From an uncultured Elusimicrobia bacterium (GTDB taxonomy: Bacteria > Elusimicrobiota > Elusimicrobia > JACQPE01), in NCBI GenBank assembly GCA_964357255.1, contig CAYHKQ010000002.1:727-64726 (forward strand): a stretch of DNA of 64,000 nucleotides, read 5' to 3'. Every line of letters begins with the position of its first letter. Positions within the stretch are counted from its first letter, which is position 1. This document shows, in pieces, positions 1 through 46,637 of this stretch. Below the pieces are notes generated by a model, which ran no database searches, was not told the DNA's origin, and saw only the letters and a list, made by a program, of their open reading frames with translations. Made by a program: the position numbers and the translations under genes.

Positions 1-2803
1 CAAGACCGAACGGTATCGCCTGGCGGAAGCCCTGGCAGGAGCTTCGGGGCATGATGATGATCAATGGAGACTTCCTTGGAGCGCCCATCACCTGCTTCTC
101 CTAACGGCCACGCCGCATATGGGAAAGGACTATCCCTACTACGCCATCTGGCGGCTTCTCGAGCCGGAGATTCTCACCACGCCGGAGGCCTTTCACGAGT
201 TTCCCGCCGACCAGCGTCGATCCCGTTTCATCCGGCGTACTAAGGAGGAGATGGTTTACCTGGATGGCCGGCCCATGTATCCCAAACGGGTTTCCGATAC
301 TTTGGGCTACGACTTGACTCAAGGTGATGTCAGTGAGCAAAAACTTTATGACGAAACCACAGACTATCTACGGTTTGTCTACAACAAGGCGAAGCTGTTG
401 AATCGCGAGGCCGCACGATTGGCCATGAGCGTTTTTCAGCGCCGATTGGCCAGCTCGACCTACTCCCTCCTGCGCTCGTTTGAGCGCCGGATCGAAAAGC
501 TGGACAAATTCGTCGCCGACGTGCAGGACGGCAAGCTAACCCCAGACCAGCTTGTCACGCTGCAGCAGCGAATTCACGAGGACCATGACGTTCTGGAATC
601 TAAGACCGCGGATGATGAAGCCGGGGATGAAGGCCGCGAAGAAAACGAAATTGCCGAAGAAAAACTCCTTCAAGGCGTGGTCGCAGCCTCGCTTGCTGAT
701 TTGCTGGCTGAAAGAGAGCATGTCCAGCGGCTTCTCGATTTAGCGAAAAGGGTCCAGGATTCCGGCCAGGAGTCAAAATTCGAGAAGTTACGCGAGGTCT
801 TAACTGCATCCAAATTCAACGGCGAGAAGTTCATCGTTTTTACCGAGCATCGCGATACGCTCGACTTTATCGTTAGTCGGTTGGAAGGCATGGGCTACAC
901 AGGCCAAGTTGCACGAATCCATGGTGGCATGAGCACTCAACCCGACTCTGCGGCGGGTCTAAGCGAGCGCGAACGGCAGGTTGAATTCTTCCGTCGTTCT
1001 TTATCCGAAGGCGGCGCGCGGTTCCTTATATGCACGGATGCCGCAGGCGAAGGAATAAACCTCCAGTTCTGCTGGATCATGATCAACTATGACGTTCCCT
1101 GGAACCCGGCCCGCTTGGAGCAGCGCATGGGACGCATCCACCGGTACCTCCAAAAGCACGATCCCGTTATCATTGTGAACCTAGTCGCTCCCTCTACCCG
1201 CGAGGGGAAGGTCCTCAAGGTTTTGCTCGACAAACTTGAGAAAATTCGCAAGGAGCTCCAATCGGATAAGGTTTATGACTGCATCGGCCGGGTTTTTGAA
1301 GGCGTCTCCATCAAGCGGTATATGGAGTTAGCGGTGACCGAGGACGCCCAATCCGTGGCCCGCGAGTTGGATGGCCGGTTGACTAAGGAGCAGGTTGAGG
1401 CTATTGCCGCGCGGGAGAAGACCCTGTATGGGACCGGCGGCGACGTGGCCCAAGAACTCCCTCGTCTGCGGACCAATCTGGAGCACGATGTCTATTTTCA
1501 CCTTCTGCCCGGGTATGTGCGGCAATATGTCCAACAGGCTGCGCCGTTGGCAGGACTTGAAGTTGAAGGCGACATGGGGGGCGTTTTTTCTTTCCGGCCG
1601 GTCCGGCCCGGCGCCATTGATCCGCTGCTGTCTGTGCTTCAAATCTATCCCGAGAACTCCTGGGAGCGCCTTTCTGTTGCGCGCCCTATAGATCGCAAGG
1701 ACACCATCTGGCTCCACCCGGGAGAACCCATATTTGAACGATTCCGCGCGATTGTAAGCGAGCGATTGGCGGACGAGGGCAAACGTGGCGCAATATTTGT
1801 GGACCCGACAACGGAGAAGCCCTATCTGTTCCACCTGGCGCTCCTCTCCATTGTCCGGAAAGCGGACTCGGAAATCCCGGACCTTGCCCAAGAAGAATTG
1901 CTTGACTGCCGCCTCGTTGGGGTCAAGCAGTACGAAGGCTCGGAAATTACTCTCTGCCAGGTTGAACATCTCCTACTCTTGAAGGGTGGGCAAGGACTCC
2001 CTGCTTCTGCGCAGCGTCTAGCCGCAACTGCGAGTGAACAAAAAGAGTTTGCCCACGCTTATCTAGCTGAGCGTATGGCCCGGGAATTGGCACTCGAACG
2101 CAGAACGCGACTGCTGGATAGCCTGCCTGAACGGGAAAATTTCATTCTGCGGGGATTCGATTACCAAGAGATGGACTTGACCGCTGCCCGGGCCAAACAT
2201 ACTGGGAAAGCGCGTACCGGCAATCGCAAGGCCATCGAATCCCTGGAGGAAGTTAAGCGCCAACAGAAACTCCTAACTGGCCGCCGTGAAAATGCTCTGG
2301 CCTTGCTACGCCGCGAGCCAGAACTAATCGCGCCTGGACAGGTTACATTCATTGCCCATGCCTTGGTCGTGCCGTCCAGCGATCCAGTGGACATTGAACA
2401 GCATGAGGCTAATGTCGAGTTGGCCGCCATGAATCTGGCCCAGGCTTTCGAGGAGACGGCCGGGGCTACGGTTCATGATGTACATACCCCGGAGCTCGCC
2501 CGTTTGGCCGGGCTCCCGGACAATCCCGGATTTGACCTTCTCTCCGTTAGGCCCGGCAACGATAAGCGCGCCATAGAAGTCAAAGGCCGATCTGGCGCCG
2601 GAGAAATCGAGGTTTCCGCCAACGAGTGGGCCAAAGCCTGCAACATGCGCCAGGATTATTGGCTCTACACTGTTTATGATTGCGCCACCCCAAGCCCGCG
2701 ACTCATCCGGGTACAGGACCCTTTCGGCAGTCTCCTCGTGAAAGCCAAAGGGAGCATGCTAATTTCGTCATCGGAAATCACGGCGGCAGCACAAGCACAA
2801 TGA
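1..2803 (+). CDS. SNF2-family helicase (C-terminal half; 5' end truncated by the window edge) with a C-terminal DUF3883-like domain
   Basis: The frame is open from nt 2 with no stop before the first ATG at 119. Residues encoded at 92-190 read LLLTATPHMGKDYPYYAIWRLLEP, which is SNF2 motif III plus the ELWsLLnFL box. The helicase-C motifs IV-VI follow (FIVFTEHRDTL, LICTDAAGEGINLQ, QRMGRIHRYLQ). The C-terminus (GRSGAGEIEVSANEWAKACNMRQDYWLYTVYDC) resembles DUF3883. Confidence 0.75.
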   Translation, partial: KTERYRLAEALAGASGHDDDQWRLPWSAHHLLLLTATPHMGKDYPYYAIWRLLEPEILTTPEAFHEFPADQRRSRFIRRTKEEMVYLDGRPMYPKRVSDTLGYDLTQGDVSEQKLYDETTDYLRFVYNKAKLLNREAARLAMSVFQRRLASSTYSLLRSFERRIEKLDKFVADVQDGKLTPDQLVTLQQRIHEDHDVLESKTADDEAGDEGREENEIAEEKLLQGVVAASLADLLAEREHVQRLLDLAKRVQDSGQESKFEKLREVLTASKFNGEKFIVFTEHRDTLDFIVSRLEGMGYTGQVARIHGGMSTQPDSAAGLSERERQVEFFRRSLSEGGARFLICTDAAGEGINLQFCWIMINYDVPWNPARLEQRMGRIHRYLQKHDPVIIVNLVAPSTREGKVLKVLLDKLEKIRKELQSDKVYDCIGRVFEGVSIKRYMELAVTEDAQSVARELDGRLTKEQVEAIAAREKTLYGTGGDVAQELPRLRTNLEHDVYFHLLPGYVRQYVQQAAPLAGLEVEGDMGGVFSFRPVRPGAIDPLLSVLQIYPENSWERLSVARPIDRKDTIWLHPGEPIFERFRAIVSERLADEGKRGAIFVDPTTEKPYLFHLALLSIVRKADSEIPDLAQEELLDCRLVGVKQYEGSEITLCQVEHLLLLKGGQGLPASAQRLAATASEQKEFAHAYLAERMARELALERRTRLLDSLPERENFILRGFDYQEMDLTAARAKHTGKARTGNRKAIESLEEVKRQQKLLTGRRENALALLRREPELIAPGQVTFIAHALVVPSSDPVDIEQHEANVELAAMNLAQAFEETAGATVHDVHTPELARLAGLPDNPGFDLLSVRPGNDKRAIEVKGRSGAGEIEVSANEWAKACNMRQDYWLYTVYDCATPSPRLIRVQDPFGSLLVKAKGSMLISSSEITAAAQAQ

Positions 2804-2825
2804 ACCATTTGAAAGGAGATTATAA

Positions 2826-4019
2826 ATGACCGATAAAGAACTTGAAGCGCTCCTCGATGACATTGAATCGGACCGCGCGGAGCGTAAAGAATCACCATCG
2901 GACACGGGCAAAATCAGGCAAGCCATCTGCGCTTTCGCCAACGATATGCCAAATCATCGCCAGCCCGGCGTTTTATTCATCGGAGCCGACGATCTGGGAA
3001 ATCCCGTTGGACTCTCGGTAACAGAACAATTGATCCAAACGCTCTCGTCCATACGCTCGGATGGAAATATCCTGCCGCTTCCCGTCATGACCGTGCAAAA
3101 GCGAAAGCTTAAAGGGAAAGATTTGGCTGTGGTCGTGGTGCAGCCTTCAGACGCGCCGCCCGTTAAATTTAAGGGAACAATTTGGATTCGAGTTGGTTCG
3201 AGCCGGGCCATAGCGAGTCCCGATGAAGAGCGGCGACTGAGCGAGAAACGTCGGCACAAAGACCTTCCATTCGACGTTCGTCCAGTGGAAAGCGCGAAGA
3301 TGAATGTATTGGATGAGTTGGCCTTTCGCCAAATTTATCTTCCGTTGGCCGTTGCCGAAGATGTGCTGCGGCAGAACCAGCGCACGCTCGAAGACCAGAT
3401 GCTCGCATCAAAGTTCGCGCATACGGGTCCTCCCGTATGTCCGACGAACCTTGGAATTCTTTCCATCGGTAAAACCCCGACGGATTGGATCCCGTGCGCC
3501 TATATCCAGTTCGTGCGCTTTGCGGGCGGAACCCTTACAGATCCCATTAAGACGTCAAATGAGATCCGCGGTCCATTGCCGGAACTGCTTAGGAAGCTTG
3601 ACGAGATACTCAAGATCAACATTCAGGAAGCCCTGGATATCACCTCCGCAGACAAGGAGATCCGCAGGCCCGACTATCCGCTGGAGGCGCTCCAACAGCT
3701 TGCCCGCAATGCCGTTCTGCACCGCTCTTATGAGAATACAAACGCCCCCATACACCTGTATTGGTTTGAAGATCGCGTGGAAATTCAGAATCCTGGGGGG
3801 CCCTTCGGAGAAGTCAATCGAATAAACTTCGGCAAGACGGGAGTATACGATTATCGGAATCTCCATATTGCTACGGTCATGAAGGAATTGGGCTATGTTC
3901 AGCGATTTGGCATTGGGATTGAATTAGCGCGTAAGGCCTGCAGGGTCAATGGAAATCCGGATCCGGATTTCGCTGTAGAGGATACGTTCATAAGCGTAAC
4001 GTTGAGGAGGGCTTCATGA
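2826..4019 (+). CDS. AlbA_2/Schlafen-like putative DNA-binding protein with a C-terminal HATPase_c_4 (RecG-like C-terminal) domain
   Basis: The N-terminus is typical of AlbA_2 (KIRQAICAFANDMPNHRQPGVLFIGADDLGNPVGL). The C-terminus is RecG-C/HATPase_c_4-like (LARNAVLHRSYEN, RVEIQNPGGPFGEV). A GGAG ribosome-binding site precedes the start. The stop overlaps the next start (ATGA at 4016-4019). Confidence 0.6.
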   Translation: MTDKELEALLDDIESDRAERKESPSDTGKIRQAICAFANDMPNHRQPGVLFIGADDLGNPVGLSVTEQLIQTLSSIRSDGNILPLPVMTVQKRKLKGKDLAVVVVQPSDAPPVKFKGTIWIRVGSSRAIASPDEERRLSEKRRHKDLPFDVRPVESAKMNVLDELAFRQIYLPLAVAEDVLRQNQRTLEDQMLASKFAHTGPPVCPTNLGILSIGKTPTDWIPCAYIQFVRFAGGTLTDPIKTSNEIRGPLPELLRKLDEILKINIQEALDITSADKEIRRPDYPLEALQQLARNAVLHRSYENTNAPIHLYWFEDRVEIQNPGGPFGEVNRINFGKTGVYDYRNLHIATVMKELGYVQRFGIGIELARKACRVNGNPDPDFAVEDTFISVTLRRAS

Positions 4020-5008
4020 GCATTCCGGTTATCACATTCTTCAACAACAAGGGCGGCGTCGGCAAAACATCCATGATCTATCACCTCTCGCATATGTTCG
4101 CTGACAACGGCATGCGCGTGTTGTCGGCCGACCTTGATCCACAATGCAATTTGACGGCGGCGTTCATTGACGAAGACCGCTTGGAGGAAATATTCAAGGA
4201 CGGGTCGCACGACAAGACCATCTTAGGCGCCATTGGACCTATAAAAAGTGGAACGGGTGATATCGCCATGCCCTACGTCGAGCCAATAAATGACAATTTG
4301 AAAGTGATCATCGGGGATTTGGGTCTTTCCTCATTCGAAGATCATTTATCAGAATGCTGGCCGAAATGCCTTGCGGGTGACGAACGCTCCTTCCGGGTAA
4401 CATCCGCCTTCTGGCGCGTTTTGCAAATGGCCGGAAAGGACTGGGCGGATGTGGCGCTTATTGACGTTGGTCCCAATTTGGGCGCGACCAATCGTGCTGC
4501 CCTGATCGCATCCGATTACGTGGTGATCCCTCTCGGACCGGACATGTTTTCCCTGCAAGGATTAGACAATTTGGGTCCTGCCCTGCGAATCTGGAGGGCT
4601 GACTGGCGAGATAGACTTAGCCGCAAGCCCCAGATTAATTTTAATCTGCCTTCCGGCAAGATTGAACCGGTTGGCTATATGGTTTTAAGACACTCTATCA
4701 GGTTGGACCGTCCCGTTAAAGCCTTCGAGAAATGGATGGCGCGTATTCCGGAAACGTATGCCCGATCCGTACTCGATACTCCATCTGCGCGGACAGTGGC
4801 CTTGGATAATGACCCGCAATGCATCGCCAAGCTGCGCGACTACCGAAGCCTCATGCCGCTGGCCCAGGAAGCCAGAAAGCCGATGTTTCTTCTAAAGCCC
4901 GCTGATGGCGCATTGGGAGCGCACGCCAACGCCGTCCATGAGGTTTACAAAGAATTTTTTGCCGTTGCTAAGACTATCGCCAAGCGGACCAATCTCAAGA
5001 TGGAGTGA
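4016..5008 (+). CDS. ParA/MinD-family ATPase
   Basis: It carries a deviant Walker A (FFNNKGGVGKTSMIYHLS) and the ParA-type DLDPQCNLT box. It is translationally coupled to the upstream gene, and the downstream gene starts 4 nt after its stop. Confidence 0.7.
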   Translation: MSIPVITFFNNKGGVGKTSMIYHLSHMFADNGMRVLSADLDPQCNLTAAFIDEDRLEEIFKDGSHDKTILGAIGPIKSGTGDIAMPYVEPINDNLKVIIGDLGLSSFEDHLSECWPKCLAGDERSFRVTSAFWRVLQMAGKDWADVALIDVGPNLGATNRAALIASDYVVIPLGPDMFSLQGLDNLGPALRIWRADWRDRLSRKPQINFNLPSGKIEPVGYMVLRHSIRLDRPVKAFEKWMARIPETYARSVLDTPSARTVALDNDPQCIAKLRDYRSLMPLAQEARKPMFLLKPADGALGAHANAVHEVYKEFFAVAKTIAKRTNLKME

Positions 5009-5011
5009 ATC

Positions 5012-8000
5012 ATGTCCGATACATCACGTTTGATTGAACACGCTTTCCCCTTGAAGCAGACTTCTTTGGACTCGGTCCACGAGAAGAACGTTCGACATGG
5101 GCACATCTCTACCCTTCATATTTGGCCTGCGAGGCGACCGCTAGCAGCCTCACGGGCCGCCCTGATCGCCACGCTGTTGCCGGACCCGGGCACACCCGAG
5201 AAGCGAAAGGAGCTCTGCGAGAAGATCGGTGGTCAATTGGTCAAGAGCATCGAGAAGAAGAAGATGCCCAACGGGGAGGTCATTGAGCGCGAGAAGGAGA
5301 GTACCGAGGGCGGCATCCTCCATTGGGGTCGGGAGACCGAGAACAAAGCACTCTTGGAGTGGTTCCGAAAGGAAATCCGCAAGGCGTACGGAGGCCGAGC
5401 CCCCAAGGTCCTCGATCCTTTCGCCGGCGGCGGGGCGATCCCTCTCGAAGCGATGCGGCTGGGCTGCGAAGTCACGGCAGTGGACATCAACCCCGTGGCG
5501 TGGTTCATACTGAAGTGTACCCTGGAATATCCGCAGAAGCTCGCCGGCCAGACGCATCCATTACCGAAATTCATCCTTGACAACGACGAGTTCATGGAGG
5601 CGTTCTACAAGGCGCATCCGCAACTCGTTGGTCGGACGAGGTGGACCAAGAAACAGAAGGAGGACTTCTCTCAGGACCTTTTCATGCAAGAGAAGGAGGA
5701 CTCGGGCCGAGCCCCCAAGGCGGACTTAGCCTGGCATGTAAGGGCCTGGGGCCAGTGGGTGCTCGACCGGGCGCGGAAGGACTTGGCGAATTTTTATCCT
5801 ACCTATGCGGATTTCGAGCCAGTAGACAAGCTCAGCATGAAACCTTACGAGAAACAGCCCATGCGCTTGGTTCCTCTCAAAAAGGACGGGACACCGGGCA
5901 TCGAGTCGCTGAACAAGGACTTCAGCAAAGATTACTTGGCCGACAAACGCAATCCGCGATGGGTCGCCAAACCCACGGCAGCCTATTTTTGGGCGCGAGC
6001 GGTTAAGTGCAAGAATTGTCGGGCTGTGGTGCCTCTTCTCAAGACCCGTTGGCTCTGCAAAAAGGATCGGAAGCGCGTTCTCCTTGTGATGGAGCCAAAT
6101 GCGAAGAAGACTGGTGTAGTCTTTGGCATTGAGACGAACGTACCCGTGAAAGGCGGGAACGCTGCGCAGCGCCGCGAAGCCGACAAGCGGCTTGGTGCCG
6201 GCACGATGTCCCGCTCAGGTGCAAAGTGCCCTTGTTGCGGCGCCATCATGGAGATGGAAGCTCTCCGGCTTGAAGGCCAAGCTGGCCGGCTGTCTGACAT
6301 TAACACGGCGGTGCTCGTGGAGGGCCAGAATGGCAAGAAATATCGTCTTCCCACCAGCCATGAAACCAGCATGGTCGAAGAGGCGGCCAAGGCCCTTCAG
6401 TCGGTATTCAGTAATTTGCCTTTCGGCAGGCCGGACGACCCGATGCCTACCAAAGAGGCCCTGGGTTTTCGGGTCCCACTCTACGGCTTTGACAAATGGA
6501 GCAAACTATTTTCTGTCCGGCAGATGCTAAGCCTCGGTGTCCTCGTAAGCTGTCCACGAGAAATCGCAAGGACTCAGAAGCGCGCATATAACGATGAATG
6601 GCTGGCTGCCATCGTTTCCTACCTTGCGTTGGTCTGCGACAAGGTGGCCGACTACAACTCTTCGTTTTGCACGTGGCATAACTCCAAAGAACAGATGCGC
6701 CAAACTTTTGCGCGTTTTGCCATGCCCATGACATGGGACTGGGCAGAGCTATGCCCCGTCAACAATGTGGGGGGGTCGCTCCTGGCTCAGTTAGATTGGG
6801 TCGCCCGCTACGTCGATCATGCTCTTGTCGCCGGAGATGGGGCGCAACCCGTATCGGTGAGCCGACAATCGTCCACCTCTTTGGCCCTGGGTGGAGTGGA
6901 TGTAGTCGTGACCGACCCGCCGTACTATGATGCGATCACTTACTCAGACCTGATGGACTTCTTCTACGTCTGGTTGCGCAGGACCCTCAAGGGACTATCT
7001 CCGTCCTTCGATGAGGTGTTCGCGTTGCCACTCGCGCCAAAGTGGGATCATGAACGAAACGATGGCGAGCTGATCGACGATAAGAGCAGGCATGGCGGCG
7101 ACCGTCAGAAGTCTAAGGCGGTATACGAGGAAGGCATGGCCCGTGTGTTCCAAGCATGCCATGCCGCTCTGGTCCCTGACGGCAAACTGGTCGTCGTCTT
7201 CGCCCATAAACATCCAGATGCCTGGGAGACCCTTGTTTCGGCGATTATCCGTGCAGGCTTCACAGTGAACGGAAGCTGGCCGATCCAGACTGAGATGGGA
7301 ACCCGTATGCGGGCGTTGTCTTCGGCTGCCTTAGCATCCTCGGTCTGGCTTGTCTGCAAGAAGCGGCCCGCTTCGGCACGTCCGGGCTGGGACAACCAAG
7401 TTCTAGATGACATGCGCCGGAACATCCGCGAGAAACTGCGAGAGTTTTGGGATGCAGGGATTCGGGGCCCGGATTTCGTTTGGGCGGCAACCGGGCCAGC
7501 GCTGGAGGCCTACAGTAAGCATCCTGTCGTGAAGAAGGCTAACGAACCTGGGCCGATGTTGGTGGGTGAATTCCTGACGCATGTGCGCCGGATGGTTGTG
7601 GATTTTGTGGTTGGCCGGGTGCTTGCAGGGGAACAGGGAGGGGATGCAGAGCTTGCCGCTACGGACCGGCTGGATGAGCCAACGGCTTATTACCTGCTCC
7701 ACCGGCATGATTTTGGCATGGAAGAGGCTCCGGCGGGAGCCTGTATTCTCTACGCAATTTCGTGCGGTGTTTCGGATAAAGAGCTGTCCGACACCTGGGA
7801 CCTCATCGGATTCACGAAAGGCAAATTAGAAGAGGACGATGAAGAAGAGAAGGCTGACGTGGACGCAAAGACCGATTCGGATTCCGAGGAAGATTCCGGC
7901 AGTAAAGTAAAGCTCAAAACATGGGCGCAGCGTAAGGGCAAGTCTCTCGGCTACGAGGCTCCGGGTGGCAAGCCCATCCCGCTCATTGATCGCATCCATT

Positions 8001-8242: not shown

Positions 8243-8315
8243 ATTTTGGCCAGCTAATTTATAAACTTCTCTATGCTGCGCCGAGTATTCGATATAAAAG
8301 GGAATTTCCGGCGCC

Positions 8316-8714
8316 GTGACTGACGACTTTAGGGCCGTAGCGCCGCGCCATCTGAACGATGCGCATGTTTTATCTCAATCCAATCGTTGGGCTGCGGCTG
8401 CCTATATCGGGGGTTATGCGATTGAATGCGGTCTTAAGGCGTTTTTTCTAAAGTGGCAAGATGCGCGGGAATTTAGTCACGATATCCAGTGGTTGCACAA
8501 AGCAATAACGCTTCTTCATGTTGACTCAAGCTATGCAAAGTATGCTGTGCAATTGACCCCGCTTAGACCAGGCACGCTCTGCTGGAGCGAAAAACTGCGA
8601 TATAAAAAGGCCCATCCCGCATTTGATCCAAAATCTGTGAGCGATATCCTTGAAGACGCCTCGGCCATTGTTTGCTTAATGCAGGAGGCCATGTTGGACG
8701 GTAAGATTGCATGA
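8316..8714 (+). CDS. HEPN-domain protein
   Basis: The first helix is HEPN-like (AAAAYIGGYAIECGLKAFFLK). An Rx4H motif is present (EKLRYKKAHP). The gene sits in the lower-GC segment. Its stop overlaps the next start (ATGA at 8711-8714). Confidence 0.5.
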   Translation: MTDDFRAVAPRHLNDAHVLSQSNRWAAAAYIGGYAIECGLKAFFLKWQDAREFSHDIQWLHKAITLLHVDSSYAKYAVQLTPLRPGTLCWSEKLRYKKAHPAFDPKSVSDILEDASAIVCLMQEAMLDGKIA

Positions 8715-10042
8715 AATTGCATTTCTCTGAAACCCTGCTGGCCTCTGAAAAAGCTGCCTTGGCTTCGGGTATTGACAAATTCGCTGATGCCATCACCATT
8801 GTGCGTGACGTCTCCGGCAGGATTCGGTTGATTGTGGAAATAAAATTTGGAGTAGCCCTCGAAGGTCTTGCGGAATGCCAAAGGGCAAAGGATGAGCTGA
8901 AACTCAAGCTGGAAGATTATTTTGGAGGAATTGAATTTTTAACAATAAAAGAAACACGCAGTGATAAAATTATCCTGGATTTAATCGCTAAAACCCGCCA
9001 GAAACGAGAAGCTCCACCCGGTTCCCCCTGTTCCCAGTGGTATCTGCTAGAACGGCGTTTATCAAAAAATAGCTGGTTTGAAAAGCAAAATCCGCCTTGG
9101 CCCCTGCCAACATTGCAAAAACCTGCCCCCTTAATAGCATCCTTTTATTCATTTAAAGGCGGGGTTGGGCGAACCACGGCACTTGCCGCTGTAGCCATCA
9201 ATTTGTCGCGAGTCGGCAAACGCGTTGTGATTATTGATTTGGATCTTGAGGCCCCAGGGCTTGGCAGCTTGATGCAAGGAAGGACAACCTACGGGGCGCT
9301 CGATTATCTTTTTGAACATCCTGTTTTGGGAAGAGCGGAAACCCTGGATCCCTATTGTTCACTCCAAACAGAGCAAAAATTCATATTGACCGGCGAAGCT
9401 ATCCGCGTCATACCGGCAGGCGTCCTGAACGAGGAATATATTGAGAAACTTTCAAGGCTTAATTTTCTAACTCAACAACAAGATAATGGTGGTTCCGTGG
9501 CATCCGCGCTTTCCGATCTGTTGATTCAATGCCGCGACGCCTTTGGGGCGGAATACATTTTGCTCGACGCACGCGCAGGAATCCACGATATTGGGGGCCT
9601 AGCTTTGCATGGAATGTCCCATGTCAATATTCTATTTGGCAGAGCCAGTCCTCAATCGTACGAAGGATACTCCCTCATACTGCCAGAATTGGGCCGTTTG
9701 AATGTACAGCAAGGCGAGGATGCTCCCTTATGCCTGCCAGTTCACGCTTTCGCCCCCCCCGCAGGCGATCAAAACCGGGAAACGGAGATTGAGAATTTTC
9801 GTAGCACAATTTACGATCTTTTCGTTAATAACTACTATCCAAGTGAAGATGACATCCCGGATATTAATGATTCCGAGGCTGAACATTTTCCTTCGGTTTT
9901 GAGCTGGAATCCCTCGCTTGCCCGTTTTACGGATTTAACGGATGTCGTTGAATATTTAACGCAAGGGGAATACTCTGACTTAGCAGAGCGTCTCGCCGGC
10001 ATAAGAGGCGATTCTCTTTCCAGGAGGCAATCTTCCCCGTGA
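8711..10042 (+). CDS. ParA/MinD-like protein with a degenerate Walker A (KGGVGRT) and an about 150-aa N-terminal extension
   Basis: It has SFKGGVGRTTALAAVAINLS followed by VVIIDLDLEAPGL and ILLDARAGIHD (Walker B-like). The conserved P-loop Lys is replaced by Arg. The stop overlaps the GTG start of the next gene. Confidence 0.5.
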   Translation: MKLHFSETLLASEKAALASGIDKFADAITIVRDVSGRIRLIVEIKFGVALEGLAECQRAKDELKLKLEDYFGGIEFLTIKETRSDKIILDLIAKTRQKREAPPGSPCSQWYLLERRLSKNSWFEKQNPPWPLPTLQKPAPLIASFYSFKGGVGRTTALAAVAINLSRVGKRVVIIDLDLEAPGLGSLMQGRTTYGALDYLFEHPVLGRAETLDPYCSLQTEQKFILTGEAIRVIPAGVLNEEYIEKLSRLNFLTQQQDNGGSVASALSDLLIQCRDAFGAEYILLDARAGIHDIGGLALHGMSHVNILFGRASPQSYEGYSLILPELGRLNVQQGEDAPLCLPVHAFAPPAGDQNRETEIENFRSTIYDLFVNNYYPSEDDIPDINDSEAEHFPSVLSWNPSLARFTDLTDVVEYLTQGEYSDLAERLAGIRGDSLSRRQSSP

Positions 10043-11532
10043 GTTCTCTGAAATTAGAAAAACATAGCGCCTTGAATTCCGAGGAACGTCGCAACCTTCT
10101 AAATTCATTACTCGCGCTTTGTAAGCGAGATGCCGAAGATCCCAGCGAATCATCTCAGGATTTTCTTCGCCGTTTCTATAAGCACCCCCAATGCGATCAA
10201 GTCATGACGCCTGAGATTGTGCTCATTCTTGGCGTTCGGGGTGCCGGCAAAAGCGCCCTTTTTAAATATCTCCAGGCTGTGCGCGATTTTCCCGGTGGGA
10301 GCACCCTGATTTTACCCGCCTCGCAAAAAGATCTCTGGACACAAGGGCATGGTACTGGAGAAAATTTTCCACAGTCCGGCGTTCTTGGTCCGTTGGTCGC
10401 GCAAAAAAATACAAAGGATACGGCGGAGATGTTTTGGCTGGGACGATTGTTGGTAGCACTAATGAGGGTCCCGCGGATTGCTCCTATTCTTGAGAGTTCG
10501 CTAGGCCCGCTTTATTCGCAATTGAAAAATTTTGGAAACAGTCCCTCTAGCTGGCTTGACAATATTGCGTCAAAACGGGAAGAGGCGTATGGCGCGTTGG
10601 ATCAAATTGAGCGGAACCTCAAACAAGATAGCCTGCGGCTTTTTGTTGCCTATGATAATTTGGACGTCTTAACGCCGGATATCGAAGCCAGCAAGCGTTT
10701 GATCAGGCAGCTACTTCGCCAGTGGCTCGGTTTTTCCAATAGATACGCTTTTTTTCGCGGCAAGATTTTTTTAAGGGTTGATTTGTTTAAATCGAGCGAA
10801 CTTGATTTTCCTGACAGTTCCAAGCTTGCTGGAAAATCTATAAATCTAACCTGGGGCAAATCCCAGCTCTACGCCTTGCTTTTTAAGCGAATGGCTAATT
10901 TGTCCGGGGAGTGGGCCGAGTACCTAAAAAGCCTCTGCCCTGCCTTAATTTTAGAGAAAAAGGAAGCCCTTGGTTTTGTCCCCCAAAACGTAGGCGAACA
11001 AGAGCAAGCCGATATCATCAATGGTCTTGTTTCAGAAATGATGGGCAAAACAGCAAAAAAGGGCCGAACGGTTAAATGGATTCCTAACAATCTTCAAGAT
11101 GGCAATGGCGTGAGCGTTCCGCGCTCAATTTTTTCCCTGTTTGGAAACGCGGCGACGCACGAAACGACTGACCCAAAAGCAAAAAGGCGCCAACTATTGA
11201 CGCCGGATGATTTACGCTATGGTCTTGTCGAGGCCAGCAAGGCAAGGGTCAGCGAAATAGGAGAAGAAATGCCTTGGGTTGAAAGGGCTTGCAAAATACT
11301 CGAAGGGAAACGCGTTCCCCTTAAAAGGCACGAGTGTGAAAAATATTTTACCCAACTTCAGCTCAATGAAAATGATAACGAATGCCCCGCACACAACCCT
11401 TCAGAGTTGATTGATTGGCTGCACAATGTGGGTGTTTTGCGCTTGACAAAGGACGGCCGGATTCATATGCCGGATATTTACCGCTTGGCTTTTGGCGTCA
11501 AAAGAATAGGCGGGGTTCCGCTGCCAAAATAG
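10039..11532 (+). CDS. P-loop NTPase, family unassigned (Walker A GVRGAGKS)
   Basis: Motifs are ILGVRGAGKSALFKYL and a Walker B-like LFVAYDNLD. The GTG start at 10039 overlaps the upstream stop (GTGA). The region is lower-GC and A/T-rich. Confidence 0.45.
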   Translation: MSSLKLEKHSALNSEERRNLLNSLLALCKRDAEDPSESSQDFLRRFYKHPQCDQVMTPEIVLILGVRGAGKSALFKYLQAVRDFPGGSTLILPASQKDLWTQGHGTGENFPQSGVLGPLVAQKNTKDTAEMFWLGRLLVALMRVPRIAPILESSLGPLYSQLKNFGNSPSSWLDNIASKREEAYGALDQIERNLKQDSLRLFVAYDNLDVLTPDIEASKRLIRQLLRQWLGFSNRYAFFRGKIFLRVDLFKSSELDFPDSSKLAGKSINLTWGKSQLYALLFKRMANLSGEWAEYLKSLCPALILEKKEALGFVPQNVGEQEQADIINGLVSEMMGKTAKKGRTVKWIPNNLQDGNGVSVPRSIFSLFGNAATHETTDPKAKRRQLLTPDDLRYGLVEASKARVSEIGEEMPWVERACKILEGKRVPLKRHECEKYFTQLQLNENDNECPAHNPSELIDWLHNVGVLRLTKDGRIHMPDIYRLAFGVKRIGGVPLPK

Positions 11533-11572
11533 AGGGGAAAGACCATGACAAAAGAATTGGAAGGTAATTTCA

Positions 11573-14500
11573 ATGCCTAAACTGCCCTGGAAACCCTGGC
11601 ACGAGGTCGTAAAACTTCGCGAGGATTTACGTTCGGGTGAACTTTCGCTCAATATGTTCGCAGCGGACCTCTATGAGGTCCTGATGCAACGCGGGAAGAT
11701 GCCTGTTTATGAGAAGCCGGAGAATTTTTTCGCGCTGACATTCCCCACCTACAACCTGCGCCACCTCGTGCGCGACGTGGCGTTGCGCTTGGCGGGTAAA
11801 AACGACAAGGCCGTGCGCCAGTTGGAACTTACTTACGGCGGTGGCAAGACTCATACGCTCATCACTCTGCGCCACCTTGTCCATGAACCCGAAAAATTGC
11901 CAGATTTGCCGTCGGTGGCTGAATTCGTCCAGGAAATCGGCCAGAAGCCTCCCAAGTGCCGAGTCGCGGGCATCTGTTTTGACAAACTGGATGTAGAGAA
12001 GGGTATGGAAGTGCGCTCACCGGATGGCAAAGTCCGGACCTTGAAGCACCCTTGGAGCGTGCTGGCCTATCAAATAGCTGGCGATGCCGGCCTGAAGATT
12101 TTGCACGCTAACAACAAGGCCGAAGAACGCGAATCCGCGCCCGCTGAGAACCTGCTCACAGAGCTTCTGGAACTGCCGAATAAAGATGGATTGAGCACAC
12201 TTATCCTAATTGACGAAGTGCTGATGTATGCCAGAGAGAAGGTTGCCCAGGATAAGGAATGGAGGAGCAAGCTGGCGAACTTTTTTCATTATCTTACCGG
12301 GGCAGTGACTAAGGTAGACCGTTGTTGTCTGGTCGCCTCTCTCTTGGCCACCGACACGAGCAAAAGCGACTCTTTGGGACGCGAGATTCAAGCCGAGCTT
12401 TACAACATCTTTCAACGCCAACGCGAAGAAGCCGTCGAGCCGGTGGTGAAGGAAGACGTAGCTGAAGTCCTGCGCCGCAGATTTTTTGCGCCGGAGTCAT
12501 TGAAGGATCGAGATGCCTTCCGCCAGCATGTGATGGCTGCGCTCAAGGGTATCGGCGCGGTTGATGAACAAACTGCAAAGCAGGGTTCCGAGGCGGAGGA
12601 GCGTTTCCTTAAGAGTTACCCGTTCCATCCCGACCTGACAGAGGTTCTATATTCAAAGTGGACCCAGTTGCGCGGTTTTCAGCGCACCCGTGGCGTGTTG
12701 CGGACGTTCGCTTTGGCCTTGCGCGAGGCTGCGACTTGGGACGAGAATCCCCTGATCGGGCCTGCGATATTCCTTTCCGGGCCAGGGAAGGAGGGTCTTT
12801 CGGAGTCGTTGCGCGAATTGGTCACTGTCGCGGATACCGAGGAATGGGAGGGCAAAAAGCAGGCTTGGACAGGAATCCTGGACAATGAACTCTCTCAGGC
12901 CAGACGCATCCAGACCGAATCCGTCGCTCTGAGATTCCACGAGGTTGAGCAAGCGATTGTGGCGACCTTCCTGCATTCACAGCCCATTGGCCAAACAGCA
13001 AGAACCCGTGATCTTGCAGTGCTCCTCGGAGCCTCCCGCACGGATAAAATCGAGCTTGAGAAGGGTCTCTTGCGATGGGTGCAGACAAGCTACTGGCTTG
13101 ACGACCTATACACCGCTGTTTCCGAAGGGGCTTTGCCTGGCACTTGGCGGCTGGGCAACCGGCCGAACCTGACCCAGATGCATGCTGTCGTGGTCAAGAA
13201 TATGTCCGAGGATATGGTCCGGGCCCGCCTTTTCGATGAGGTCACGAAGGTAAAAACGCTTACTGCCAACGCCTCGGCGGCAGGCGTACGTGTCCACTCG
13301 CTTCCAGCAAGACCCAAAGATGTGGAAGACGAAGGCGCGTTTCATTATGCGGTTCTGGGGCCAAATGCGGCTTGCGAATCCGGTAAACCCAGTTCGGAGG
13401 CGGCACGATTTCTGGATGAGACGACAGGTCCAGACAAGCCCCGCGTCTATCGCAACTGCGTTCTGTTGCTTGCCCCGTCGAAGGATGGTTTAGAGCTCAC
13501 AATAGCCAGGATACGAGATTACCTCGCCTGGGAGGTGGTCCGCGAGGATATCAAAAAGCAGCAGAAGGACGGGAATGTCGATCCCGCCCGGGCCCAGACA
13601 TTGCAGATTAACATTGACAGAGCCAAGGCCCGCATCCCGGAAGCCATCAAGCAAGCCTACTGTATCGTAGTGACGGTTTCGGAAAAGGACGAGGTGCAGG
13701 CTTTTAAGATCACCATCTCGGAAGATACCCACTTCAATATTATCAAGACGGACCGGCGCTCTCGCGTCCAGGAGACGGCTGTCACAGCCGAGGCTCTGCT
13801 ACCGGAGGGCCCTTATAACCTCTGGCGTTCCGGCGAAAAGTCACGTCGCGTCAAGGATTTGGCCGGGGCTTTTGCCCAACTGCCACATCTGCCCAAGATG
13901 CTCAAAGCGAGCGCCATCCTCGAAACGCTCGTGGATGGGTGCGAGAAAGGAACATTTGTTTTACGACTTGTCCGCCCGGATGGAACGTCCCGGACGTGGT
14001 GGATGTCACGTCCGGACGATAACGCGCTCAATGATCCGGCGATGGAGTTGGTCCTTCCTAATACGGCAGAACTTGCAGATCTTTCTCCAGAGCTCTTGGT
14101 CCCCGGGAAGCTCCCTGACCTGTGGACTGAAAGTGAAATTATGGCCAAGACAGTCACCGAATATTTTGGCGGCTCGAAGGTCGTGCAAGTTGATCGTGGA
14201 GGCTACCGAGAGCCGATGCACATCCCAAAAGCCGGACAGACTATTGTGGATAAGGCCATCGGTGTGGCGGTAGAAAGCGGATCTATCTGGCTGCTTTCTG
14301 GCCCTTCCAGCATCCTTGGGGAACCTATGCCGGCAGGTATCCTCAACGCCAGCGCAAAGCTTTGCGCGCCTCCGGCCGTGATCGCCGCCGCGGAAATCCT
14401 GCCGGAGAATCTGCCGGCAGCCTGGAAGGACGTATCTGCTTCCGGACTTGCCATCTCAACTGCTTTGTCCGTGAAGGTTGGAAAGACATTGCCGTGGAAG

Positions 14501-14890
14501 ACTGTGAGGGGTGTAATTAGCAGCGCATTGCAGGCGCGATTCTTGGAGCTTACCCCTGATTCTAAGATTTGGCCCTGCGATCTGGCCGTCGCACAGTTCG
14601 CCAAATTCAAAGTCGCCATCCCAATCGCGGCCGGAGGATTTACCGTCGCCAGCGCAACAGGCAGCGGGTCAAAAGCGCTTATTGCAGCCGCCAATCTAGA
14701 GCCTTCGCAGGTTCAAGAGCTCGGCGATATCGTGCCAAAGCTACTGGCGATCAAGACCAAGGCAAACGTGCCCATACGATTCCACGTTCAGGTCGAGATG
14801 GGGGATGGTAAAACCCCGCCTCCACCCGAGACGGTGACTCAGGCGAACACCTTGCTCAAAAATGTGAATGCAGATCTGCAACTGCGATAA
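11573..14890 (+). CDS. DUF499-family ATPase (BrxC/PglY-like)
   Basis: The N-terminus is a DUF499 signature (PWHEVVKLREDLRSGELSLNMFAADLYEV ... TYNLRHLVRDV ... ELTYGGGKTHTLITL). The protein is 1105 aa. Confidence 0.75.
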   Translation: MPKLPWKPWHEVVKLREDLRSGELSLNMFAADLYEVLMQRGKMPVYEKPENFFALTFPTYNLRHLVRDVALRLAGKNDKAVRQLELTYGGGKTHTLITLRHLVHEPEKLPDLPSVAEFVQEIGQKPPKCRVAGICFDKLDVEKGMEVRSPDGKVRTLKHPWSVLAYQIAGDAGLKILHANNKAEERESAPAENLLTELLELPNKDGLSTLILIDEVLMYAREKVAQDKEWRSKLANFFHYLTGAVTKVDRCCLVASLLATDTSKSDSLGREIQAELYNIFQRQREEAVEPVVKEDVAEVLRRRFFAPESLKDRDAFRQHVMAALKGIGAVDEQTAKQGSEAEERFLKSYPFHPDLTEVLYSKWTQLRGFQRTRGVLRTFALALREAATWDENPLIGPAIFLSGPGKEGLSESLRELVTVADTEEWEGKKQAWTGILDNELSQARRIQTESVALRFHEVEQAIVATFLHSQPIGQTARTRDLAVLLGASRTDKIELEKGLLRWVQTSYWLDDLYTAVSEGALPGTWRLGNRPNLTQMHAVVVKNMSEDMVRARLFDEVTKVKTLTANASAAGVRVHSLPARPKDVEDEGAFHYAVLGPNAACESGKPSSEAARFLDETTGPDKPRVYRNCVLLLAPSKDGLELTIARIRDYLAWEVVREDIKKQQKDGNVDPARAQTLQINIDRAKARIPEAIKQAYCIVVTVSEKDEVQAFKITISEDTHFNIIKTDRRSRVQETAVTAEALLPEGPYNLWRSGEKSRRVKDLAGAFAQLPHLPKMLKASAILETLVDGCEKGTFVLRLVRPDGTSRTWWMSRPDDNALNDPAMELVLPNTAELADLSPELLVPGKLPDLWTESEIMAKTVTEYFGGSKVVQVDRGGYREPMHIPKAGQTIVDKAIGVAVESGSIWLLSGPSSILGEPMPAGILNASAKLCAPPAVIAAAEILPENLPAAWKDVSASGLAISTALSVKVGKTLPWKTVRGVISSALQARFLELTPDSKIWPCDLAVAQFAKFKVAIPIAAGGFTVASATGSGSKALIAAANLEPSQVQELGDIVPKLLAIKTKANVPIRFHVQVEMGDGKTPPPPETVTQANTLLKNVNADLQLR

Positions 14891-15424
14891 TCTGGTAACC
14901 ACGTTAACGCGATGAATCTATTTCGGGGGACACTATACAGTACGTATTTTCAGAGTTCCGGGGACACACACTTAATTTCCCGATTGTACCTCAGGACAAG
15001 AATTCTAGCGGAAGCGCATGGGCTTGGGTGGTACTGGGATCGGTAGGACGCCGTACTTCTCGGCGTTTAGCGCCGTTGCCGGTTTGACCGTCAGGGCGCC
15101 GCACTTACGGTTTCTGAGGTCCACCGCCTTGGTTAAATCGTCCCGGCGTCTGATGCCTTCCAGGAGGTAACCCGCGTTGCCCTCAGCCCGGCACAACCCC
15201 GAGACACTGATGCCAAGAAATCTTACCGTCAGTCTCGGCGGCCAGTATCGGCTCAGGATGCAACCGACTGTTCAAGGTTAGACTTAAAGTTGCGGTTGTG
15301 CGGTAGCGCTGTAGGCGGCTGTTAGGCTTGTCGGGAACCCCCTCAGCTTCAGGCGGTGATGATTTTTTTGTGTTTGAACAAAGTGCTGTGTACAATCGTG
15401 CGGCAGAATCGAACGGAGCTATTC

Positions 15425-40268: not shown

Positions 40269-40337
40269 AAGCCTCCTCTGGAGGTAGCGGCCCCCAATCA
40301 AACCCTTTTCAATAAGTAAATTTTTCTAATTTATGTC

Positions 40338-40856: not shown

Positions 40857-40857
40857 G

Positions 40858-41280: not shown

Positions 41281-41391
41281 CTTATTTCTCCAACCCTGAA
41301 TATTTCCCGTTCCCATAAATATTCTCACGCATTAAGTAGTTACCCAATTTTATTTTTTGACTTTGCGGCCAATCGTATCCATTTTGATCTC

Positions 41392-44993: not shown

Positions 44994-45002
44994 TTTTTGG
45001 AT

Positions 45003-45040: not shown

Positions 45041-45060
45041 CATCTGGTAACATTATCTCA

Positions 45061-45672: not shown

Positions 45673-45674
45673 TA

Positions 45675-46631: not shown

Positions 46632-46637
46632 TCCCGT

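Follow-up and report, generated by a model that had tools for sequence, protein, structure and literature searches.

According to our analysis, the eight co-directional plus-strand open reading frames (ORFs) at positions 1-14890 of the window, that is, of the whole 64,000-nt stretch analyzed, most likely comprise an Hma core and two self-contained cassettes that occupy the slots between the core genes, share their operon and are not mechanistically wired to the core. Judged by homology, the triad hmaA, hmaB and hmaC is an Hma system of the type-1 “DUF499-centred BREX-related,” restriction-modification-like kind. The adenine-type methyltransferase HmaB would mark host DNA, the ORC/Cdc6-like AAA+ ATPase HmaC would serve as a sensor or scaffold, and HmaA, which joins an SNF2 translocase to a PD-(D/E)XK nickase, would attack invading DNA; all three roles are assigned by homology. 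The defense activity of HmaA and the requirement for its nickase have been shown only for a Halomonas homologue, and over-expression of HmaB left T4 sensitivity unchanged (PMC11232893).

Beside this core, further functions may be layered, each inter-gene slot having been colonized by one cassette. The Schlafen-like RNase of cassette 1 (slot A-B) is probably an abortive-infection effector triggered by ATP-driven oligomerization, and its ParA partner probably serves in DNA sensing or regulation. The HEPN RNase and two NTPases of cassette 2 (slot B-C) probably form a second, independent NTPase-gated RNase module.

Organization of the locus

The order and domains of the eight genes (Table 1) agree with those in an earlier sequence-only reading, each of whose domain calls was reproduced by Pfam. 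The Pfam and PADLOC profile searches that this reading had called for place the helicase, methyltransferase and large ATPase among the DUF3883, DUF1156 and DUF499 members; the catalytic DPPY motif of the methyltransferase was located, and the triad is interleaved with five extra genes, as had been described. Each of the eight proteins retains intact nucleotide-binding or catalytic motifs.

Table 1. Genes of the locus with window coordinates, profile matches and motifs.
Gene	Position	Strand	Product	Profile matches	Motifs
hmaA (3' 933 codons only)	1..2803 (ORF 2(119)-2803)	+	SNF2-type helicase, C-terminal NOV_C/DUF3883 PD-(D/E)XK nuclease	PADLOC HmaA 3.7e-89 (profile positions 309-1130 of 1176); Pfam Helicase_C 5.6e-21, NOV_C (former DUF3883) 1.9e-15	TATP motif III; GFD...EVK nuclease motif at C-terminus
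Schlafen-GHKL (cassette 1, gene 1; 397 aa)	2826..4019	+	SLFN_AlbA_2 + HATPase_c_4; stand-alone “Schlatpase”	Pfam SLFN_AlbA_2 7.2e-16, HATPase_c_4 1.9e-16	E14, E19, D55/D56 conserved
ParA (cassette 1, gene 2; 330 aa)	4016..5008	+	ParA-type ATPase	Pfam AAA_31/CbiA 1.9e-28	Deviant Walker A KGGVGKT, K12-T18
hmaB	5012..8242	+	DUF1156 DNA methyltransferase	PADLOC HmaB 3.7e-120; Pfam DUF1156 2.3e-17, MethyltransfD12	Motif I FAGGG at residue 137, motif IV DPPY at 635, large insert between
PDC-M28A (cassette 2; 132 aa)	8316..8714	+	Small HEPN protein	PADLOC PDC-M28A 5.5e-16; Pfam HEPN 1.1e-5, 26.1 bits (cut-off 22)	Rx4H, R95-H100
PDC-M28B (cassette 2)	8711..10042	+	MinD/ParA-like ATPase, KGGVGR variant	PADLOC PDC-M28B 2.9e-62; Pfam ParA-type P-loop; NCBIfam NF047398 AAA_KGGVGR, 164.7 bits (cut-off 90)	KGGVGR motif K149-T155, after N-terminal extension of ~140 aa
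PDC-M28C (cassette 2)	10039..11532	+	Sll1717-family P-loop NTPase	PADLOC PDC-M28C 1.2e-76; Pfam P-loop NTPase; NCBIfam NF047389, 114.1 bits (cut-off 75)	Walker A GVRGAGKS, residues 65-72
hmaC	11573..14890	+	DUF499 AAA+ ATPase	PADLOC HmaC 4.2e-76 (residues 7-793 on profile positions 4-771); Pfam DUF499 1.1e-22	Walker A GGGKT near residue 90
Neighbor, outside the operon	15425..16312	-	YhcG/DUF1016 PD-(D/E)XK nuclease, PDC-S02 candidate	PADLOC PDC-S02 1.5e-128 (from profile position 63); Pfam YhcG_C 1.8e-63	

The packing of the genes and their ATGA and GTGA overlaps had also been correctly recognized; the gaps, given previously as 4 to 74 nt, measure 22, 3, 73 and 40 nt. The 4-nt start/stop overlaps are confined to the interiors of the cassettes (ATGA at 4016 between Schlafen and ParA and at 8711 between PDC-M28A and PDC-M28B, GTGA at 10039 between PDC-M28B and PDC-M28C), whereas 3-73 nt separate core from cassette genes where the two meet. 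The single transcription unit that had been proposed is plausible from the co-directional, tight spacing, to which a promoter and terminator scan added no support: promoter-like and terminator-like matches did not exceed the shuffle expectation, and none fell inside any intergenic gap of the operon.

[quoted passage not shown] The count of eight genes is accordingly a minimum. A full-length relative in locus L005 (72% identity, 1192 aa) carries HTH_3, SNF2, Helicase_C and NOV_C. No integrase, transposase or flanking repeat was found in positions 1-16500. The YhcG/DUF1016 neighbor is convergent with hmaC and, judging by the start of its profile match, appears truncated at the N-terminus. Members of this family occupy Hma slots too, accounting for 5 of 133 slot ORFs that were scanned in relatives.

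Slot variability and cassette modularity

Comparison with 80 species-level HmaB relatives (53-87% identity) showed a conserved order A, B, C, with the A-B slot filled in 48 of 65 loci and the B-C slot in 23 of 56; both slots were filled in 15 of 48 loci and neither in 9 of 48. The cargo varied and included ABC ATPases, HEC-01, PDC-S02/YhcG, SMODS/SAVED/ThiF, TIR, NYN, Fic and Schlafen-GHKL. These counts reproduce the frequent interleaving published for Hma, in which embedded genes were reported for 62.7% of 1,485 systems (bioRxiv 10.1101/2024.01.29.577857) and for 66.5% of systems (PMC11232893). Extra genes between hma genes are a common, documented layout.

Both cassettes behave as independent modules, since start/stop overlaps occur only within them, PDC-M28 is lower in GC than the hma genes, both are found outside Hma, and cargo differs in the closest Hma relative. 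The hma genes have a GC content of 56-57% (GC3 62-67%), the Schlafen/ParA pair 52.5%, and the PDC-M28 genes 47.5-49% (GC3 45-49%), i.e., 8-10 points below the hma genes. In the closest relative, L011 (HmaB 87%, HmaC 80% and HmaA 79% identical), the A-B slot holds a Schlafen gene that differs from the window's and lacks ParA, together with other ORFs, and the B-C slot a YhcG remnant. None of the 80 related species combines Schlafen-ParA in A-B with PDC-M28 in B-C.

The sequence-only reading had proposed an elaborated, probably undescribed variant in which methylation-based marking is functionally coupled to the added genes. Given the modularity of the cassettes and the existing name of the core, this is unsupported: the triad is the named Hma, its interleaving is the norm, the trio is the catalogued candidate PDC-M28, both cassettes also occur without Hma, and cargo changes in L011. 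As for whether the identical eight-gene architecture is already catalogued, its parts are named (Hma and PDC-M28), but the exact combination was found in no other species and the literature consulted does not describe the ParA partner.

The two cassettes

The conserved, unnamed pair of Schlafen-GHKL (397 aa) and ParA (330 aa) is the residual novelty of the locus and its sole fresh lead. At least 5,390 homologues of Schlafen-GHKL were found and, among the matches listed, nearly all have 397 aa; for both partners, identity is about 65% and length is fixed across the top 120 hits that each search listed. AF2 predicts the N-terminal domain of Schlafen-GHKL with pLDDT 84-94; the top Foldseek match in the PDB is 3lmm, and the next matches are SLFN14/11/13/12/5, the tRNase domain of SAMD9 and the GHKL folds of RsbW/SpoIIAB/PDK. 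A Schlafen gene lies immediately upstream of ParA in all 12 lineages with at least 47% ParA identity, whereas ParA relatives with at most 41% identity, on viral contigs, are without this partner. The pair recurs in the A-B slot of four lineages (the window, L004-006, L019 and L089), lies in two others (L001 and L104-106) beside no more than a 5' stub of hmaB, and stands alone amid housekeeping genes in L007-010, L101-103 and L107-109. Such strong conservation in often stable housekeeping surroundings is atypical of defense genes. PADLOC gave no strong match for the pair, and the literature consulted contains no mention of the ParA partner. In at least 1,017 taxa, Schlafen-plus-minimal-kinase genes are reported beside the cores of BREX and BR systems (PMC12839542), and the nuclease-effector mechanism of SLFN plus GHKL has been shown for SLFN-pAgo (bioRxiv 10.64898/2026.05.29.728809).

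At E<=1e-3, the PDC-M28C family comprises 993 representatives, and only one of these exceeds 50% identity. The closest PDC-M28 relative (L094, 74-84% identity) lies beside parAB and an integrase, the trio stands alone on a Tistrella plasmid, and on a Calothrix plasmid a distant PDC-M28-like trio adjoins DUF499-like and HmaA-like genes. No mention of PDC-M28 was found in the text of the literature searched. Because this Calothrix trio lies beside DUF499-like genes, and because three of six ParA contexts (found from ParA itself, a sample biased to close relatives of the window's copy) are in or beside Hma or its remnants, the cassettes may possibly be linked preferentially, perhaps functionally, to DUF499 systems.

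Alternative explanations

A closer integration has to be considered, in which the Schlafen RNase, HEPN RNase and NTPases are accessory sensors or suicide effectors signaled by or assembled with the Hma core; this corresponds to the “backup effector” model of PMC12839542 and to the view of the sequence-only reading. It accords with the co-directional, tightly packed genes and the absence of a terminator from every gap, with the recurrent linkage of Schlafen and HEPN genes to BREX and BR cores (PMC12839542), with the frequent N-terminal HEPN fusion of type-1 BR ATPases, and with the recurrence of Schlafen-ParA in the A-B slot, the lineages retaining hmaB stubs and the Calothrix context. However, each cassette is also found away from Hma, PDC-M28 occurs in none of the 80 HmaB relatives and its composition is sharply unlike that of the core, slot content differs even where Hma cores share 80-87% identity, and translational coupling is seen within cassettes only. 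We consider such integration unlikely.

It is still more improbable that some of the extra genes are non-immune, with Schlafen-GHKL as a DNA-binding operon regulator and the ParA-type ATPases as partition or positioning leftovers of an inserted mobile element. Public annotations of the Schlafen-GHKL family read “putative DNA binding domain-containing protein” or “RecG,” and guilt-by-embedding curation rejected cassettes with this family as defense candidates; the housekeeping surroundings of the highly conserved pair and the parAB and integrase next to the closest PDC-M28 relative point the same way. Nevertheless, the 397-aa protein lacks the C-terminal HTH of longer family members, the Schlafen nuclease motif keeps its conserved acidic residues and HEPN its conserved Rx4H motif, and SLFN-GHKL modules are shown nuclease effectors of SLFN-pAgo. 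Neither ParA-type gene of the window has a parB partner, positions 1-16500 are free of the mobile-element features sought, and the lack of Schlafen beside distant viral ParA relatives sets the linked clade apart from ordinary partition ParA. An Hma core with independent cassettes in its slots is the reading we retain.

Comparison with known systems

Type-3 BREX (BrxC, PglXI, BrxHII, PglZ) has been described as the closest BREX relative of DUF499-centred BREX-related systems (PMC12839542), and the window helicase is homologous to the BrxHI/HII profiles (3.4e-53); however, PglZ, BrxA, BrxB and BrxF are absent from the locus, and the window HmaC hits the profiles for HmaC and DUF499, not BrxC. 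The description of DUF499 as the core domain of BrxC, given in the sequence-only reading, is outdated, as BrxC best matches DUF6079 and DUF499 only secondarily (PMC12839542). Type-2 BREX-related systems (PLD/HKD helicase, DUF1156 and DUF499) share a homologous methyltransferase and ATPase, but the window helicase carries at its C-terminus the REase that is typical of type-1, and there is no DUF3780 gene; the scores for NF042962-NF042964 lie far under the NCBIfam cut-offs (176, 83 and 113 against 1000, 1200 and 1100).

The window Schlafen-GHKL shares both Pfam domains and their order with the “Schlatpase” of SLFN-pAgo, weakly matches the N-terminal part of the PADLOC pAgo profile, and in its predicted fold resembles Schlafen nuclease domains and GHKL kinases. 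It differs in being a stand-alone protein without an Argonaute core, always paired with a ParA-type ATPase, a partner not mentioned in the SLFN-pAgo paper (bioRxiv 10.64898/2026.05.29.728809). PDC-M28 is a phage-defense candidate of PADLOC-DB v2 (cassette CAS_00115 in bioRxiv 10.1101/2024.01.29.577857); the window copy is divergent, with a single relative more than 50% identical, but matches the A, B and C profiles in the same order, and the trio is kept in L094 and on the Calothrix and Tistrella plasmids.

Hma, a three-gene anti-phage system of helicase, methylase and ATPase, was named in PADLOC (Payne et al. 2021, PMC8565338) and renamed type-1 “DUF499-centred BREX-related” in 2026 (PMC12839542). 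The window locus departs from it in a cargo pairing seen in none of the 80 related species and in an HmaC that, on inspection of its N-terminal sequence, lacks the HEPN fusion reported for many type-1 systems (PMC12839542). The likeness lies in the strong match of all three core proteins in the conserved order, the C-terminal NOV_C/PD-(D/E)XK nuclease of the helicase, the large insertion that separates motif I from motif IV in the methyltransferase, and slots holding two and three genes, where the published survey range is up to three per slot (bioRxiv 10.1101/2024.01.29.577857).

Identity and layout of the locus

The eight ORFs at positions 1-14890, all co-directional on the + strand, form an Hma (helicase/methylase/ATPase) system in which both slots between the core genes are occupied. 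According to PADLOC-DB profiles, the helicase is HmaA (3.7e-89), the methyltransferase is HmaB (3.7e-120; Pfam DUF1156, 2.3e-17) and the ATPase is HmaC (4.2e-76). An SNF2 helicase with a C-terminal NOV_C/DUF3883 nuclease, a DUF1156 methyltransferase and a DUF499 AAA+ ATPase thus lie in the order A, B, C in one locus. Two genes (cassette 1: Schlafen-GHKL and ParA) are found in the A-B slot and three (cassette 2: PDC-M28A, B and C) in the B-C slot; up to three embedded genes per slot were allowed in the published embedding survey.

The domains named in a sequence-only reading of this DNA were all recovered by Pfam: Helicase_C and NOV_C (the current name of DUF3883) in the helicase; SLFN_AlbA_2 with HATPase_c_4, and a ParA-type AAA_31/CbiA ATPase, in cassette 1; DUF1156 in the hmaB product, which matched as a methyltransferase only weakly; another ParA-type P-loop protein, a P-loop NTPase and a small HEPN protein, the last scoring 26.1 bits (cut-off 22), in cassette 2; and DUF499 in the hmaC product (1.1e-22). 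The same reading had interpreted the locus as an expanded, probably new restriction-like system. Its assignment of the triad to DUF3883, DUF1156 and DUF499 was confirmed by Pfam and the PADLOC Hma profiles, but the evidence points instead to a described system (Hma, type-1 BREX-related) with a described embedding behavior.

Hma was named in 2021 as a candidate helicase, methylase and ATPase system from 26 phyla (PMC8565338). The family received the new name "DUF499-centred BREX-related (BR) systems" in a 2026 survey, which divided it into three types, type 1 being the plain triad of ATPase, N6-methyltransferase and helicase-REase (PMC12839542). No record of the exact HmaB sequence was found by look-up, and PDB sequence searches with HmaC and HmaB gave no match.

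The hmaA frame has no stop codon from base 2 to the first ATG at 119, and its product aligns to 309-1130 of the 1176-position PADLOC HmaA profile; hmaA therefore extends past the window edge, with roughly its first 260-300 codons missing, and the start of the operon lies outside the visible window. Co-transcription of the eight genes is presumed, because promoter-like and terminator-like matches in a scan of the locus were at or below shuffle expectation and so uninformative on the transcription unit. Rfam and tRNA scans gave no match within the locus.

Features of the window, in order along the sequence; residue numbers refer to the gene products, and all listed motifs are intact
Feature	Position (nt)	Strand	Motif	Remark
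hmaA		+	GFD...EVK nuclease motif, C-terminus	helicase
Schlafen-GHKL gene	2826-4019	+		cassette 1
ParA gene	4016-5008	+	KGGVGKT at 12-18	cassette 1
hmaB		+	FAGGG at 137, DPPY at 635	methyltransferase
PDC-M28A		+	Rx4H (RYKKAH) at 95-100	cassette 2, HEPN protein
PDC-M28B		+	KGGVGRT at 149-155	cassette 2, second ParA-like protein
PDC-M28C		+	GVRGAGKS at 65-72	cassette 2, NTPase
hmaC		+	Walker A GGGKT near residue 90	ATPase
Gap after hmaC	14891-15424			535 nt, to YhcG gene
17-nt repeat, first copy	14923-14939			
YhcG/DUF1016 PD-(D/E)XK nuclease gene	15425-16312	-		PADLOC PDC-S02, 1.5e-128; convergent with hmaC
17-nt repeat, second copy	16295-16311			
Second low-GC patch	~40300-49400			GC 46-48%
369-aa ORF	41392-42501	-		no Pfam match
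C5-cytosine methylase gene	42465-43613	-		overlaps 369-aa ORF
N6/N4 methylase gene	45675-46631	+		surrounded by small or unannotated ORFs
440-aa ORF	47999-49321	-		among the small or unannotated ORFs around the N6/N4 methylase gene
tRNA-Gln(ctg)	50019-50091	-		end of low-GC patch

Embedded genes across Hma relatives

Embedded genes have been reported in 931 of 1,485 Hma systems (62.7%), comprising 376 different cassettes (bioRxiv 10.1101/2024.01.29.577857), and a Halomonas study, which called the hma region an insertion hotspot, gave a figure of 66.5% (PMC11232893). For our own check, one genome per species was scanned with the HmaB of the window, which yielded 80 loci from many phyla at 53-87% identity; the proteins of the window were mapped onto these loci, and gaps of more than 400 nt were scored as filled slots. 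Gene order (A, B, C) was conserved. The A-B slot was filled in 48 of 65 loci and the B-C slot in 23 of 56; both slots were filled in 15 of 48 loci and neither in nine of the same number. Interleaving is the rule for the Hma family.

The cargo of these slots is heterogeneous. Pfam and PADLOC scans of 133 slot ORFs from the relatives revealed ABC-type ATPases (AAA_21, AAA_15; HEC-01 and AriA-like), Schlafen plus GHKL proteins (n = 7), YhcG/PDC-S02 nucleases (n = 5), SMODS, SAVED and ThiF, as well as TIR, NYN and Fic. The Schlafen-ParA pair occupied the A-B slot of two of the 80 loci (L019 and L089), and PDC-M28 was found in none of them.

The closest Hma relative, locus L011 of an Elusimicrobia MAG (HmaB 87%, HmaC 80% and HmaA 79% identity), has in its A-B slot a Schlafen gene other than that of the window (54% identity) and unaccompanied by ParA, together with two other ORFs, and in its B-C slot a degraded YhcG gene. 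A Latescibacteria MAG (GCA_016187725.1; locus L004, 4714-20336) shares the hmaA, Schlafen, ParA arrangement. In this locus the Schlafen gene is shortened, hmaB lies in pieces around an IS200/IS605-type Y1 transposase gene, and the B-C slot holds YhcG, a DEAD-helicase fragment and a DprA-like gene.

The Schlafen-GHKL and ParA pair

The 397-aa protein of cassette 1 is a stand-alone "Schlatpase" (SLFN_AlbA_2 plus GHKL). In its AF2 model the N-terminal domain has a pLDDT of 84-94; whole-chain TM-scores were low because the model is reliable only for residues 1-140. The best PDB match of the whole model was 3lmm, a structural-genomics protein of Corynebacterium diphtheriae, followed by Schlafen nuclease domains, the SAMD9 tRNase domain and GHKL kinases; a PDB sequence search gave no match. 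Among the homologues E14 never varies, E19 hardly ever does, and D55/D56 are majority residues; we take all of these to correspond to the acidic catalytic residues of Schlafen nucleases. The AF2 model of ParA (mean pLDDT 53.6) was too poor for a fold search.

A metagenome scan with the single ParA sequence returned only five loci; the contexts of ParA were gathered by targeted look-ups and a scan of viral contigs. The pair was found in 12 lineages with a ParA at least 47% identical to that of the window, and the Schlafen gene lay immediately upstream in all 12. Among 78 ParA relatives on viral contigs at 41% identity or less, none had a Schlafen neighbor. In four lineages the pair occupies the slot between hmaA and hmaB (the window with L091-093; L004-006; L019; L089). 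In two others (L001-003 and L104-106) the ParA gene is followed by a 5' stub of hmaB, and hmaA and hmaC are absent. The stub encodes 46 aa at 89% identity in L001 (5601-5738) and about 139 aa in L104 (6996-7570), as also in L105 and L106. The L001 and L104-106 loci look like relics of decayed Hma systems, the embedded pair having lasted longer than the system around it. In three lineages (L007-010, L101-103, L107-109) the pair visibly stands alone among housekeeping or toxin-antitoxin-like neighbors, and L096/097, L110 and L111 gave no Hma hits in the DNA retrieved, the L096 and L097 contigs being shorter than 5 kb.

Protein searches revealed at least 5,390 homologues of Schlafen-GHKL and at least 7,996 of ParA. 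Among the best 120 matches of each, identity was about 63-70%, nearly all Schlafen-GHKL proteins were 397 aa long, most ParA proteins were 330-338 aa long, and many of the named ones belonged to Planctomycetota. About 20 of the 120 in each list share the same longest-contig size, a rough sign that both genes travel together. The NCBI protein identical to the Schlafen of the window is annotated "MAG: ATP-binding protein [Elusimicrobiota bacterium]." Short contigs identical to the window (L091-093, L095) presumably come from Hainich groundwater: the contig names of ENA ERZ1292624, a metagenome assembly with identical fragments, start with "Hain_H41."

Schlafen plus minimal-kinase genes beside BREX and BR cores have already been described (PMC12839542). 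The ParA partner is absent from the text of that survey and of the SLFN-pAgo paper (bioRxiv 10.64898/2026.05.29.728809), and the pair had no strong match in PADLOC v2. As far as PADLOC v2 and the cited papers show, the obligate pairing of Schlafen-GHKL with ParA is uncatalogued, although FAM_00002>>FAM_01381, a cassette rejected in the embedding survey (bioRxiv 10.1101/2024.01.29.577857), might correspond to it.

The PDC-M28 trio

Cassette 2 consists of contiguous genes that match PDC-M28A (5.5e-16), B (2.9e-62) and C (1.2e-76) of PADLOC in this order. In NCBIfam, PDC-M28B scores 164.7 bits (cut-off 90) as a "KGGVGR-motif variant AAA ATPase" and PDC-M28C 114.1 bits (cut-off 75) as a "Sll1717-family P-loop ATPase." PDC-M28 is known as cassette CAS_00115 (count 121), a defense candidate only, nominated through guilt-by-embedding (bioRxiv 10.1101/2024.01.29.577857), and no mention of PDC-M28 or the KGGVGR motif was found in the text of the literature searched. 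With 993 cluster representatives at E<=1e-3, PDC-M28C belongs to a family of moderate size; the copy in the window has just one relative above 50% identity, and a PDB sequence search with it gave no match.

A trio 74-84% identical to that of the window (L094) adjoins parA-parB and an integrase, with no Hma, and the trio of a Tistrella plasmid lies among urea and formamide metabolism genes. The Calothrix sp. PCC 7716 plasmid AP025020.1 (L190, 1-8446) carries a distant trio that resembles PDC-M28 (35% identity). Divergently beside it are genes for an HmaA-like helicase and for a DUF499-like ATPase that shares 24% identity with HmaC over 834 aa, a second and independent case of such a cassette next to a DUF499-type system.

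Two separate modules

The three 4-nt start/stop overlaps of the locus (ATGA, ATGA and GTGA) all lie inside the cassettes, at Schlafen/ParA, M28A/M28B and M28B/M28C, and each of the four core-cassette junctions is a gap (22, 3, 73 and 40 nt). Composition follows the same division: GC is 56-57% (GC3 62-67%) in hmaA, hmaB and hmaC, 52.5% (57-61%) in Schlafen and ParA, and 47.5-49% (45-49%) in PDC-M28A, B and C. Based on this translational coupling and composition, on the turnover visible in L011 and on the autonomy of each cassette, the five extra genes fall into two distinct modules, each of which clearly also survives where Hma is absent. An insertion scar was not identified, since the repeat search revealed no direct or inverted repeats around either cassette.

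Surroundings of the locus

Relative to the family profiles, the YhcG gene downstream of hmaC is missing some 40-60 residues at the N-terminus and may be truncated or frameshifted. The YhcG family is also present in Hma slots of relatives, including the degraded B-C copy in L011. A 17-nt direct repeat, TCGGGGGACAC(T/C)ATACA, with 16 of 17 positions identical, brackets the post-hmaC gap and the YhcG gene, its second copy sitting right where the truncated ORF begins. Chance alone would give about 0.4 pairs of this kind per 16.5 kb, and the pair may be a coincidence or a rearrangement scar. Ordinary metabolic genes follow the locus in the window. The second low-GC patch, which ends at a tRNA gene, contains two DNA methyltransferase genes and probably represents two type II restriction-modification systems forming a small island beside the tRNA gene.

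Proposed functions and alternative explanations

By homology, HmaB would mark host DNA, the DPPY motif indicating an amino-methyltransferase; HmaC would be an ORC/Cdc6-like AAA+ sensor or scaffold, and HmaA an SNF2 translocase-nickase effector. A Halomonas HmaA homologue alone defends and requires its PD-(D/E)XK nickase; these are the only Hma properties demonstrated experimentally, in another species, and one test with HmaB, in which its over-expression left T4 sensitivity unchanged, was negative (PMC11232893).

For both cassettes we infer every mechanistic step. By its likeness to SLFN-pAgo, Schlafen-GHKL may act as an RNase gated by ATP, and the ParA-type ATPase would be its DNA-sensing or regulatory partner; by analogy, PDC-M28 would be a HEPN RNase gated by two NTPases. 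We tentatively propose, as a possibility that we hold with less than even confidence, that the 397-aa Schlafen-GHKL and the 330-aa ParA form an autonomous, very widespread and unnamed immune pair, in which a DNA-binding ParA senses infection and gates a Schlafen tRNase/RNase, and that PDC-M28 is a second case of a SIMIBI ATPase controlling an RNase.

The extra genes might instead be functionally integrated with Hma, as the "backup effectors" of the 2026 survey (PMC12839542). In agreement with this, three of the six ParA homologues with contexts looked up from ParA itself lie in or beside Hma or its remnants, although this sample is biased toward close relatives of the copy in the window, and the Calothrix trio also adjoins a DUF499 system. 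The persistence of both cassettes without Hma argues against integration, and we consider it unlikely. Weaker still is a non-defense origin, with a regulator plus partition leftovers: the Schlafen-ParA pair is highly conserved and has housekeeping neighbors, both unusual for immune genes, but parB, integrase and transposase are absent from the locus, the cassettes lack flanking repeats and the nuclease motifs are conserved, which makes such an origin very improbable.

The triad, its embedding behavior and the HEPN / ParA-like / NTPase cassette are already described; the exact cargo combination of the window is uncatalogued as far as PADLOC v2 and the cited papers show. The locus offers a clear natural case of an Hma operon with both slots occupied, and guilt-by-embedding nominates two cargo modules in it: PDC-M28, a catalogued candidate, and Schlafen-GHKL with ParA, which is conserved across thousands of metagenomic sequences. 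If our proposal of ParA-gated RNases is true, ParA/MinD-type ATPases would be a general class of defense regulators, and if both modules work, this would point to these ATPases as regulators of RNase effectors in bacterial immunity.

Comparison with known systems

Type-1 BR is defined by a PD-(D/E)XK REase on the helicase as primary effector, the absence of an N-terminal HKD domain, DUF3780 and PglZ, and a DUF499 ATPase that ends in wHTH units and an RRM-like domain. The helicase of the locus carries a C-terminal REase, and its N-terminus lies outside the window; a full-length relative (72% identical) contains HTH_3 and SNF2 domains but lacks a PLD. Pfam revealed neither DUF3780 nor PglZ among the eight genes. 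As in type 1, the methyltransferase has motifs I and IV about 500 aa apart, a spacing that fits the nested target-recognition domain described for the family (PMC12839542). Type-2 BR, the NCBIfam "antiphage" trio, was rejected with scores far below the cut-offs. BREX (types 1-6) was also rejected, as no PglZ or BrxC (DUF6079-type) match was obtained for any of the eight proteins with Pfam and PADLOC. DUF499 had been regarded in the sequence-only reading as the core domain of BrxC; however, BrxC is best described by DUF6079 (PMC12839542). An assignment to ParABS partition, which pairs ParA with ParB or another centromere-binding protein, was not supported, with no ParB domain detected in the locus by Pfam. 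The cassette 1 ParA clade has a Schlafen-GHKL gene as its constant neighbor, in 12 of 12 lineages.
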